NCBI GenBank assembly: GCA_963719315.1
Contig: CAVRBU010000005.1
Span: 128,001-192,000, forward strand
Source of the DNA: an uncultured Planctomycetota bacterium
GTDB taxonomy: Bacteria > Planctomycetota > Planctomycetia > Pirellulales > Lacipirellulaceae
Length of the DNA stretch: 64,000 nt
Direction of reading: 5' to 3'
Part shown: positions 28,643 to 30,642 of the stretch, one piece after another
Position numbering within the stretch: the stretch's first letter is position 1
Layout of the letters: the number at the start of each line of letters is the position of its first letter
Position numbers: made by a program

Positions 28643-30642
28643 ACCCTTGCACACGAGCGGATGGAGTTGAATCGCGTTGCCTTCCACGAGCACCGGCTCG
28701 AACGCCTGAATGCCCATGCGATGCAATGTCGGGGCACGGTTGAGCAGCACCGGGTGGTTGCGGATCACCTCTTCGAGGATATCCCACACCTCATCATCCT
28801 TGCGCTCCAGCATTTTCTTGGCACTCTTGATCGTATCGGCGTGGCCAAGCTCTTTCAGCCGGCGGATGATGAACGGCTGGTACAACTCCAGCGCGATCTT
28901 CTTCGGCAAGCCGCATTGGTGCAGCCTAAGGCTGGGGCCGACGACGATCACGCTGCGAGCCGAGTAATCGACGCGCTTGCCCAGCAAGTTTTCGCGGAAC
29001 CGGCCCTGCTTGCCTTTGATCATGTCGGTGAGCGACTTGAGCGGACGATTCGAAGAGCCGAGCACCGGCCGCTTGCAGCGGTTGTTGTCGAATAACGCGT
29101 CGACCGATTGCTGCAGCATCCGCTTTTCATTACGGATGATGACTTCGGGCGCATTCAGATCAACCAGCTTCTTGAGCCGGTTGTTGCGGTTGATGATCCG
29201 GCGATAGAGATCGTTCAAATCGCTCGTGGCGAAGTTTCCGCTATCGAGCAGCACCAGTGGCCGCAGATCGGGCGGAATCACCGGGATCACGTCCAGCACC
29301 ATCCACTCGGGCTTGTTGTCCGAATCGCGGATGGCTTCGACCGTCTTGAGCCGGTTGATCAGGTCCTTCGCCTTTTGCTTGGAACCTGTTTCCTTCAGCT
29401 CTTCGCGCAAGTCGACCGACAGCTTGACGAGATCGAGCGACTGCAACAGTTTGCGGATTGCTTCGGCGCCCATCGAGGCCTCGAACGCCGTTTCGCCGAA
29501 TTGCTCGCGGGCCTGGCGATACTCCTCTTCCGTCAGCAATTGCTGGGGCTTGAGCGCCGTATCGCCCGGATTCGTGACCACGTAATCCTGGAAATAAATC
29601 ACCTTTTCCAGACTGGTCGTCTTCATGGCCAACAAGCTGCCCAGGCGGCTGGGCATCGCTTTGAAGAACCAAATGTGCACCACGGGCGCGGCCAACTCGA
29701 TGTGGCCCATCCGCTTGCGGCGGACGCGGCTGTGCGTCACCTTCACGCCGCAGCGATCGCAGATCATGCCCTTGTACTTCATGCCGCGGTACTTGCCGCA
29801 CGCGCATTCCCAGTCCTTTTCGGGTCCGAAAATTCGTTCGCAGAACAAGCCGTCCTTCTCCGGCCGATAAGTACGGTAATTGATCGTCTCCGGCTTCTTC
29901 ACTTCGCCGAACGACCAACTACGGATATCGTGCGGCCGAGCCAGGCTGATCTTTACCGAGGCGTAGTCGTTGATGCGATCGTAACTGGCGGTGTCTAAAA
30001 TGCTGCTCATATCTTTCGCTCCTAACGTGGTCGAAGCGGGGCGTGATCGGTTAAAACAAATTTGTCATTGCAAATTTGTCATTTGTAATTGGTCATTTCG
30101 GGGGCGGAGTGATGGATTCCGGTCTTGCTGGTTCTTGACGAGAACTCTGCGCGCAGTCGATAATGATTGCCCCAGGATTCGGCATAGCTGATCTGATTCG
30201 TCAAGCACATCGGAAAGCATATTTTCTGAGATCGATCCTGAACGCGCGATCAAACGAAGCCAATATCTAGTTTCACGAAGCTCTTTAAGTGCGATGCTTA
30301 ACTTATGTACGAAATCCCTTCGACTCTCCGCGGCTCGTCCTTCTTCATAATTCGGCGCCGGCGAAGTTCCCGATCGTATTATTTGACTTGCGATATGCCG
30401 ACCGAGTCTTGAATCCGGCAATGAATCGGCAACTTTCCCAATCCGCGCCGCAAAATCCAACAATCGGTCCGCTAATTCATCAGGTGTCACTTAGGTTCCT
30501 TCTGAAATGACCAATGACAAATGACAAATTTGCAATGACAAATCAAATCCTTCGTTTCTCCAACTGCATATTCAAACCCAAGCCGCGGATTTCGTTGGTC
30601 AAAACGTCGAAGCTCGCCGGCGTGCCGGCTTCGAGCGTGTTC

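Follow-up and report, generated by a model that had tools for sequence, protein, structure and literature searches.

A probable selfish gene cassette bounded by heptad-repeat hairpin arms in the rpoB-rpoC spacer of a planctomycete

The spacer between rpoB and rpoC in the genome of an uncultured planctomycete of the family Lacipirellulaceae harbours an insert that is probably a selfish gene cassette bounded by a hairpin. The cassette would be composed, in the order of transcription, of a 5' arm made of heptad repeats, a ribosome-binding site, a gene of the S23p (four-helix-bundle) family and a complementary 3' arm. Arms and gene are inherited and relocated jointly, as one DNA unit that ends at the outer arm ends; its landing sites are the intergenic spacers of operons, where it almost always has sense orientation and in most cases directly adjoins the stop codon of the gene before it. 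The reading as a mobile cassette is well supported. S23p cassettes and those carrying GxxExxY genes fall into two families that run in parallel and have distinct arm classes, and each arm type exists also as many hairpins devoid of any open reading frame (ORF).

These elements connect the origin of the ORF-bearing intervening sequences (IVSs) of rRNA genes, the role of two very widespread families of small, functionally uncharacterized proteins (S23p/four-helix bundle and GxxExxY) and the tandem heptamers that abound in bacteria. In several species, the essential rpoB-rpoC operon would tolerate a selfish insert of 0.5 kb, whose cost and processing thereby become testable. Furthermore, if these small proteins act on their own arms, they would provide a means of moving or guarding DNA without a classical transposase.

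The cassette between rpoB and rpoC

The window, i.e. the whole stretch of 64,000 nucleotides that was analysed, carries the cassette and its two host genes on the minus strand. Below, coordinates without a contig name count from the first letter of the window; those that follow C1, C2 and so on are contig positions in the genome.

30060..30543 (minus strand): whole cassette (arms and S23p ORF), 484 nt, between the rpoB stop codon and the rpoC leader
30504..30543 (minus strand): 5' arm in the sense direction, 40 nt, made of 7-nt units; covers the last base of the rpoB stop codon
30491..30503 (minus strand): leader from the 5' arm to the GTG start, with a Shine-Dalgarno-like purine run as read from the sequence; the relative in genome G004 has a matching layout
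30065..30490 (minus strand): S23p/four-helix-bundle ORF, 141 aa, GTG start
30060..30099 (minus strand): 3' arm in the sense direction, pairing with the 5' arm at 39 of 40 positions
30011..30059 (minus strand): intact rpoC leader, 3' of the cassette, 49 nt, with a GGAG ribosome-binding site and then the ATG
30543..34253 (minus strand): rpoB, the upstream host gene (TIGR02013, 1613.6 bits)
25631..30010 (minus strand): rpoC, the downstream host gene (TIGR02386, 1738.8 bits)

The rpoB-rpoC spacer of this genome is 532 nt long. The arms (30060-30099 and 30504-30543), built of 7-nt units and 98% complementary, are separated by 404 nt, and when the sense strand of the cassette is folded as RNA they pair together (z = -3.3; none of 100 shuffled sequences folds equally well). 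The ORF matches both PF05635 (E = 1.2e-18, 67.7 bits for a cut-off of 33.8) and TIGR02436 (E = 1.6e-26, 92.7 bits for a cut-off of 24) and is related to a protein of solved structure (2rld, E = 5.4e-17); no transposase family is found among its profile matches and, to our knowledge, S23p is not a known enzyme. The family match spans 30155-30469, and the C-terminal tail of the protein, which is not conserved, extends into the 3' arm. Complementarity, family match and fold all agree with the genome-wide survey's note, which had described a stem-loop cassette with an S23p ORF at this place. An Rfam search of 29900-30700 with E values up to 1 matched nothing, and a promoter and terminator scan of the cassette gave no site on the sense strand and sites at chance level on the antisense strand only. 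The public RNA contigs that aligned to the region derive from conserved portions of rpoB and rpoC in other organisms and leave 30108-30509 uncovered. The rpoC leader left after the cassette is approximately as long as the full spacer at empty sites.

The rpoB-rpoC spacers were compared across 29 related genomes. The spacer is empty, at 55–62 nt, in three genomes of the genus. An S23p cassette is found in eight genomes of the genus with two arm types, the first in two genomes (this one and G004) and the second, also made of heptads and accompanied by a related S23p, in six. The spacer contains other, ORF-less hairpins in nine genomes of the genus, part of them of the REP type, and other small ORFs in one. 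Among the 10 genomes of the order that lie beyond the family, none has a rpoB-rpoC inverted repeat scoring above 9 (see below for the arm score). Empty and filled sites have diverged beyond alignment.

The S23p gene is under purifying selection: between this genome and G004, pN is 0.13 and pS 0.64 (dN/dS of about 0.10). The copy at rpoB-rpoC in another genome, G019, appears frameshifted. The arms of the cassettes of this genome and G004 differ at 1 of 82 positions; as pS reaches 0.64 in the gene that they enclose, the arm sequence itself must be constrained, beyond the requirement for pairing. In the six orthologous rpoB-rpoC cassettes, 93.9% of the 41 arm pairs are paired and eight pairs have undergone changes on both sides, a result that none of 500 shuffles equals. 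Complementarity of the arms is maintained through paired changes, and the conservation of their sequence greatly exceeds that of neutral sites. These paired changes are mostly from A-U to U-A, without wobble intermediates.

Cassettes of two families in this genome, the genus and other phyla

Eleven S23p genes (TIGR02436) and three genes matching PF13366 (PDDEXK_3) were found in this genome. The latter, the third of which lies at C2:1849169-1849516, all belong to the GxxExxY family TIGR04256 (134, 138.8 and 138.8 bits, cut-off 35). To score the arms, the left flank of each gene was aligned to the reverse complement of its right flank (match +1, mismatch -2). The scores are 15, 9, 17, 13, 26, 20, 16, 37, 15, 23 and 20 for the S23p copies and 18, 17 and 19 for the GxxExxY copies, against a median of 8, a 99th percentile of 12 and a maximum of 18 at 1500 random places, only nine of which score at least 13. 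This value is attained by 13 of the 14 copies (10 of the 11 S23p and all three GxxExxY). The exception, the S23p copy at C2:1566207, has retained degenerate arms, paired at 19 of 24 positions with a laxer alignment. The survey's note had placed all 11 S23p genes and two GxxExxY genes in armed cassettes; the statement is upheld for all except this S23p copy with decayed arms, and the GxxExxY genes, all armed, number three.

The cassettes of this genome are 413–653 nt long. Their Pfam neighbours include aroG-type DAHP synthase, lysC, hisF, argG, DUF58 and BatA, MacB and an ABC gene, PilB and PilC, as well as others. The operon neighbours named in the note are found again here, apart from oppF, which was not seen. 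A co-directional gene precedes 13 of the 14 cassettes, and in 12 of these 13 the 5' arm begins between -3 and +10 nt from the end of the upstream stop codon. No copy of either family is located in rRNA; the single 23S gene (C1:438708-441635), which contains none of the 11 S23p genes, has 2928 nt for 2925 model positions and is insert-free.

Within the genus, arms scoring at least 13 flank 93 of 103 evaluable S23p copies; this count and those that follow exaggerate independence, since they come from related genomes, most of them incompletely assembled. Among 19 additional S23p copies, 17 are armed, as are 61 of the 68 evaluable full-length GxxExxY copies. The two families differ in the period of their tandem arms. 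This period is 7 in 71 and 8 in seven of the 79 tandem-armed S23p cassettes, and 8, 9 or 10 in all 21 tandem-armed GxxExxY cassettes, which combine a 7-nt core with a variable spacer. The period-8 S23p cassettes sit in two clades of the protein tree, a reflection of shared descent. The S23p 5' arm contains more G than C in 85 cassettes, versus five with the opposite bias; this G bias is weaker in GxxExxY cassettes (34 vs 17). These features extend to other phyla. A search with three S23p copies of this genome gave 584 relatives, one of them in the cultured Stieleria tagensis. Of the best 80, 75 could be evaluated and 57 are armed, compared with 4 of 141 shifted controls; within this set, 44 of the 47 tandem arms have period 7, and 51 cassettes versus six have a G-rich 5' arm.

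The location in spacers in the sense direction, which the note had also put forward, receives support from the cassettes flanked by co-directional genes: sense outnumbers antisense by 59 to 2 for S23p and by 34 to 4 for GxxExxY, on the basis of crude gene calls in related genomes. In the genus, the median distance between the S23p 5' arm and the upstream stop codon is -1 nt. Two roles or signatures considered for the arms were rejected. A barrier of stop codons in all three frames is encoded by just 21 of 93 S23p 5' arms, and 33 have no stop at all. Similarly, both halves of a would-be universal inner-end motif (CCRGA / TCYGG) are present in just 13 of the 93 cassettes, compared with 5 of 465 random segments, so that the motif tags a sub-family only.

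Mobility is indicated by pairs of cassettes that have 70–89% protein identity and similar arms and yet lie between unrelated flanks. In five such pairs, a tblastx comparison of the 700-nt flanks on both sides gave no hit, and in three of the five a single alignment spans the element from outer arm end to outer arm end (e.g. 300-885 vs cassette 301-888). The overlap in arm 7-mers follows protein identity, unrelated-flank pairs included, being 0.003 for proteins below 35% identity and 0.16–0.36 above 65%. When the proteins have 65–85% identity, the arm units differ by one to three bases, and they do so in every repeat of both arms, which indicates that the arrays evolve in concert. In this genome, the most closely related S23p proteins (58%) are the sole pair with a common arm unit (cassettes C1:142080 and C2:793816). 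Neither a target-site duplication nor a transposition enzyme is evident for these cassettes.

As each kind of arm diverges jointly with its ORF, the data do not fit a single element with exchangeable cargo. The note had proposed one kind of mobile element carrying either S23p or GxxExxY: mobility stands, whereas the single element gives way to separate arm classes (periods 7–8 vs 8–10) that co-diverge with their ORFs. Its suggestion that each cassette has arm units of its own does not hold, given the unit common to C1:142080 and C2:793816 and the recurrence of nearly all arm types in ORF-less hairpins.

ORF-less hairpins and the explanations in competition

A genome-wide scan for inverted repeats revealed 96 tandem-armed ORF-less hairpins with loops below 200 nt, for 14 cassettes. 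For seven cassettes tested, further copies were found of the arms only, the interiors having none. The arm of the rpoB-rpoC cassette occurs at 21 loci of the genome, i.e. 20 besides the cassette; these are mostly ORF-less hairpins of about 82 nt, with their tip at the exact place of the ORF in the cassette. The ORF-less hairpins of this type join two different arm variants, whereas the cassette joins two arms of one type. Hairpins can also be nested: at C3:205055-205236 and again at C13:112641-112797, one of the rpoB-rpoC type occupies the tip of one of the GxxExxY type. No direct repeats flank the ORF-less copies; their flanks are instead purine-rich and pyrimidine-rich, and complementary. 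The relationship between hairpins and cassettes, for which the note had only likeness to offer, is thus established by arm sequence.

In this genome, 16 tandem-armed pairs have loops of 290–700 nt; 10 of them contain S23p or GxxExxY, and no third cargo family was found among the 16. Two candidates for such a third cargo were discarded: C2:197418-197842, with a 319-nt loop, is fliE flanked by two separate small hairpins, and C2:1173205-1173546 is a pair inside a class-I tRNA-synthetase gene. A dependence of hairpin number on the cognate S23p gene was also rejected. G001, a 93% complete genome, has 65 matches to the rpoB-rpoC-type arm, which was found in none of its four S23p copies, and this genome has 29 matches to the second arm type, found in none of its 11 S23p copies, while G018 and G020, which carry the second-type cassette, have two and five arm matches, respectively; as assemblies are incomplete, cognate genes missing here are 'not found' rather than 'absent'.

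The data can be confronted with several explanations. The cassette could be an RNA-level element of the IVS type, in which selection would preserve a site for RNase III, so that the ORF is cut out of the operon mRNA, and which would spread via the excised RNA, e.g. by reverse transcription with an Avd-like S23p as helper. We regard this as unlikely, even though the arms covary, the sense bias is strong (59:2 and 34:4), an RNase III gene is present in the genome and the anatomy is that of the Coxiella 23S IVS, with its heptamers and its excision by RNase III (PMC4990558, consulted in part). Selection for pairing of a sense RNA, which tolerates wobble, would predict G·U mismatches far in excess of A·C. 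The transition-type mismatches of the arms do not show this, with G·U vs A·C counts of 108 vs 93 for the S23p cassettes of the genus, 59 vs 75 for the cross-phylum S23p set (best 80 of 584) and 63 vs 72 for GxxExxY, i.e. 230 vs 240 over the three sets, the counts being blurred by the ambiguous register of alignments between tandem repeats. Along with the A-U to U-A changes that bypass wobble intermediates and the conservation of the arm sequence beyond pairing, this lack of a G·U excess points to maintenance of the arms at the DNA level. The RNA-level explanation also accounts poorly for the period-7 ORF-less hairpins, which have no preferred direction with respect to host genes (17 G-first, 14 C-first), and for the GxxExxY cargo, which has a DNA-nuclease fold, going by the family name.

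Alternatively, the hairpins would be primary and spread by a host or unlinked factor, S23p and GxxExxY being passengers that enter, or are kept at, their tips. The position of the ORF at the tip of the ORF-less copies, the two nested hairpins, the independence of hairpin counts from the cognate gene and the excess of ORF-less hairpins over cassettes (96 vs 14) all suit this scenario, which nevertheless seems rather improbable to us: arm period and G-rich polarity follow the family and direction of the ORF, arm divergence matches protein divergence even at unrelated loci, the arms of the rpoB-rpoC cassette are of one type while ORF-less copies mix two variants, and the long-looped tandem-armed pairs yielded no third cargo. 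As for a domesticated operon module, in which the stem, possibly along with S23p, would serve the host in processing the messages of rpoB and rpoC or in uncoupling them, we give it very little credence. The presence of a cassette at this site in eight genomes of the genus and the purifying selection on S23p (dN/dS of about 0.1 where computable) are what it would predict. It is at odds with the three empty spacers and the nine spacers with unrelated hairpins in the same genus, with the lack of any inverted repeat scoring above 9 at rpoB-rpoC in the 10 order-level genomes outside the family, with the occurrence of this type of cassette next to unrelated genes and with the apparent frameshift of the G019 copy.

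The selfish hairpin-bounded cassette is the explanation that we retain, and its way of life can be sketched as follows. The S23p gene would have no promoter of its own and would be expressed through read-through of the host operon. RNA duplexes of about 40 bp are substrates of RNase III. In the rpoB-rpoC transcript, the arms would form such a duplex, and its cutting, as in the stems of rRNA IVSs, is plausible by analogy. This cut would part the message of rpoB from that of rpoC without harm to the rpoC leader, so that the insertion could be tolerated. The arms would be kept as DNA, by arm-to-arm copying or by protein recognition, rather than by selection for RNA pairing, and an oligomer of S23p is the probable binder of the repeat arrays.

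A broader proposal, which is tentative and for which we claim considerably less confidence, is that S23p cassettes, GxxExxY cassettes and ORF-less heptad hairpins constitute a single extensive class of mobile DNA, as yet undescribed and extending across phyla. Every one of the small proteins would recognize its own array, with one subunit of the oligomer per 7–10-nt unit; the 23S IVSs would be copies that landed in rRNA genes, and the G-rich heptamers of Xanthomonas, cyanobacteria and others would be footprints of such elements.

Relationships with known systems

Miniature inverted-repeat elements (MITEs) with their parent insertion sequences, and Correia elements, are short, have inverted ends, reside in transcribed spacers and exist in gene-bearing and gene-less versions; transcripts of the Correia elements of Neisseria are cut by RNase III. 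Unlike MITEs and insertion sequences, the cassettes have no transposase, their ORF-less copies have no target-site duplication and their arms are internally repetitive. The cassette protein also recalls Avd, the accessory protein of diversity-generating retroelements, which we take to be a relative of the S23p family: both are small four-helix-bundle proteins, and Avd acts with nucleic acid. Unlike in the case of Avd, neither a reverse transcriptase nor a template repeat lies beside the cassettes.

Tandem heptamers located in intergenic regions are also known from cyanobacteria as STRR repeats. In Xanthomonas and Nostoc, G-rich intergenic tandem heptamer repeats have been described, including in Xanthomonas 70–75 convergent pairs able to form stem-loops; they are mostly transcribed and their function is unknown (PMC4692102). 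The consulted part of that account does not connect the repeats with S23p genes or with a cassette (PMC4692102), and the arrays studied here differ from these heptamers in being both ends of a gene-bearing unit. More generally, the literature searched, with most subscription journals and the comments of family curators outside its scope, contained no S23p or GxxExxY cassettes bounded by repeats beyond rRNA.

The REPIN/RAYT systems likewise have one small gene between inverted copies of a dispersed palindromic repeat, which also occurs without the gene in intergenic regions (PMC3116915). The cassettes are distinguished from them, as portrayed in the part of this source used here, by a gene that encodes a four-helix-bundle or PD-(D/E)XK-fold protein and no Y1 (HUH) transposase, by arms that are tandem 7–10-nt arrays and by hairpin counts that do not track the cognate gene (PMC3116915). 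Ordinary RAYT-type (Y1_Tnp) genes, with their own GC-rich palindromes, are present elsewhere in this genome.

Counterparts with the same anatomy are the ORF-bearing 23S IVSs of Coxiella burnetii (helix 45) and Leptospira, in which an S23p-family ORF lies in a loop between complementary ends (PMC4990558, consulted in part). These IVSs are about 0.4–0.5 kb long and are regarded as selfish elements; that of C. burnetii has tandem heptamers in its stem and is cut by RNase III (PMC4990558). The IVS-like architecture recognized by the survey's note, with an S23p ORF in the loop of a long heptamer stem as in the Coxiella IVS, is therefore confirmed, within the extent of that source (PMC4990558). The cassettes depart from 23S IVSs by residing in the mRNA spacers of protein genes, in a genome whose 23S gene is free of inserts, and by their many ORF-less hairpin copies. 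The anatomy of ORF-bearing 23S IVSs was already known; here, it is found outside rRNA, between protein genes.

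ORF-less heptad hairpins in the window

In the window, tandem 7-nt arrays form the arms of six hairpins that carry no ORF, and whose arm types are those of S23p cassettes (an S23p/four-helix-bundle ORF between inverted arms) found at other sites of the same genome. A further ORF-less copy has the same arm sequence as the cassette located between rpoB and rpoC.

1566-1659: ORF-less hairpin, 7-nt tandem arms
2544-2609: ORF-less hairpin, 7-nt tandem arms
17632-17712 (C5:145632): ORF-less copy, arm sequence of the rpoB|rpoC cassette
36342-36402: ORF-less hairpin, 7-nt tandem arms
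36847-36925: ORF-less hairpin, 7-nt tandem arms
39972-40066: ORF-less hairpin, 7-nt tandem arms
40150-40241: ORF-less hairpin, 7-nt tandem arms

The hairpins 36342-36402 and 36847-36925 lie directly upstream of an ORF ending at 36336, above the L10-rpoB-rpoC genes.

Other repeats and arm pairs

Directly downstream of rpoC, the ORF 25179-25613 (minus strand) is similar to REP-associated tyrosine transposases, its score of 74.4 bits lying below the cut-off of 80. A GC-rich palindrome (25537-25620) is found beside it. Genome-wide, there are 11 Y1_Tnp matches, some of them bracketed by their own REP-type repeats.

Elsewhere in this genome, C2:197418-197842 was rejected as a cassette: it mimics one, with a separate hairpin of the same heptad family on either side of the small flagellar gene fliE. 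At C2:1173205-1173546, the reading frame of a class-I tRNA-synthetase gene runs through two complementary heptad arrays, 296 nt apart, and both encode peptide.

Apparently disrupted S23p copies and distant relatives

Two S23p copies of this genome (C3:281164-281484 and C2:171710-172051) each contain one in-frame stop, and the rpoB|rpoC orthologue of the related genome G019 appears frameshifted; these features could reflect decay or assembly error. In another relative, G002, the rpoB|rpoC spacer (662 nt) harbours an insert with small ORFs, none of them S23p, and no strong inverted repeat.

Among the best 80 of 584 relatives of three S23p copies of this genome, sequences sharing 55-62% identity with these copies are labelled Verrucomicrobia, Nitrospiraceae, Gammaproteobacteria, Bacteroidota, Acidobacteriota or Patescibacteria, which hints that S23p may have been transferred between phyla.

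GxxExxY-type and nested hairpins

The arms of GxxExxY cassettes, a parallel family, also occur in hairpins, and rpoBC-type heptad hairpins (arm sequence of the rpoB|rpoC cassette) can be nested in the tip of these.

Window 63211-63380: hairpin, GxxExxY-type arms, 9-nt period, 100-nt loop
C3:205055-205236: GxxExxY-type hairpin with an rpoBC-type hairpin in its tip (DNA fold, z = -13)
C13:112641-112797: GxxExxY-type hairpin with an rpoBC-type hairpin in its tip

Several further copies of the kind at 63211-63380 have loops of 88-100 nt in this genome, and the GxxExxY-type hairpins with such loops resemble a miniature element.
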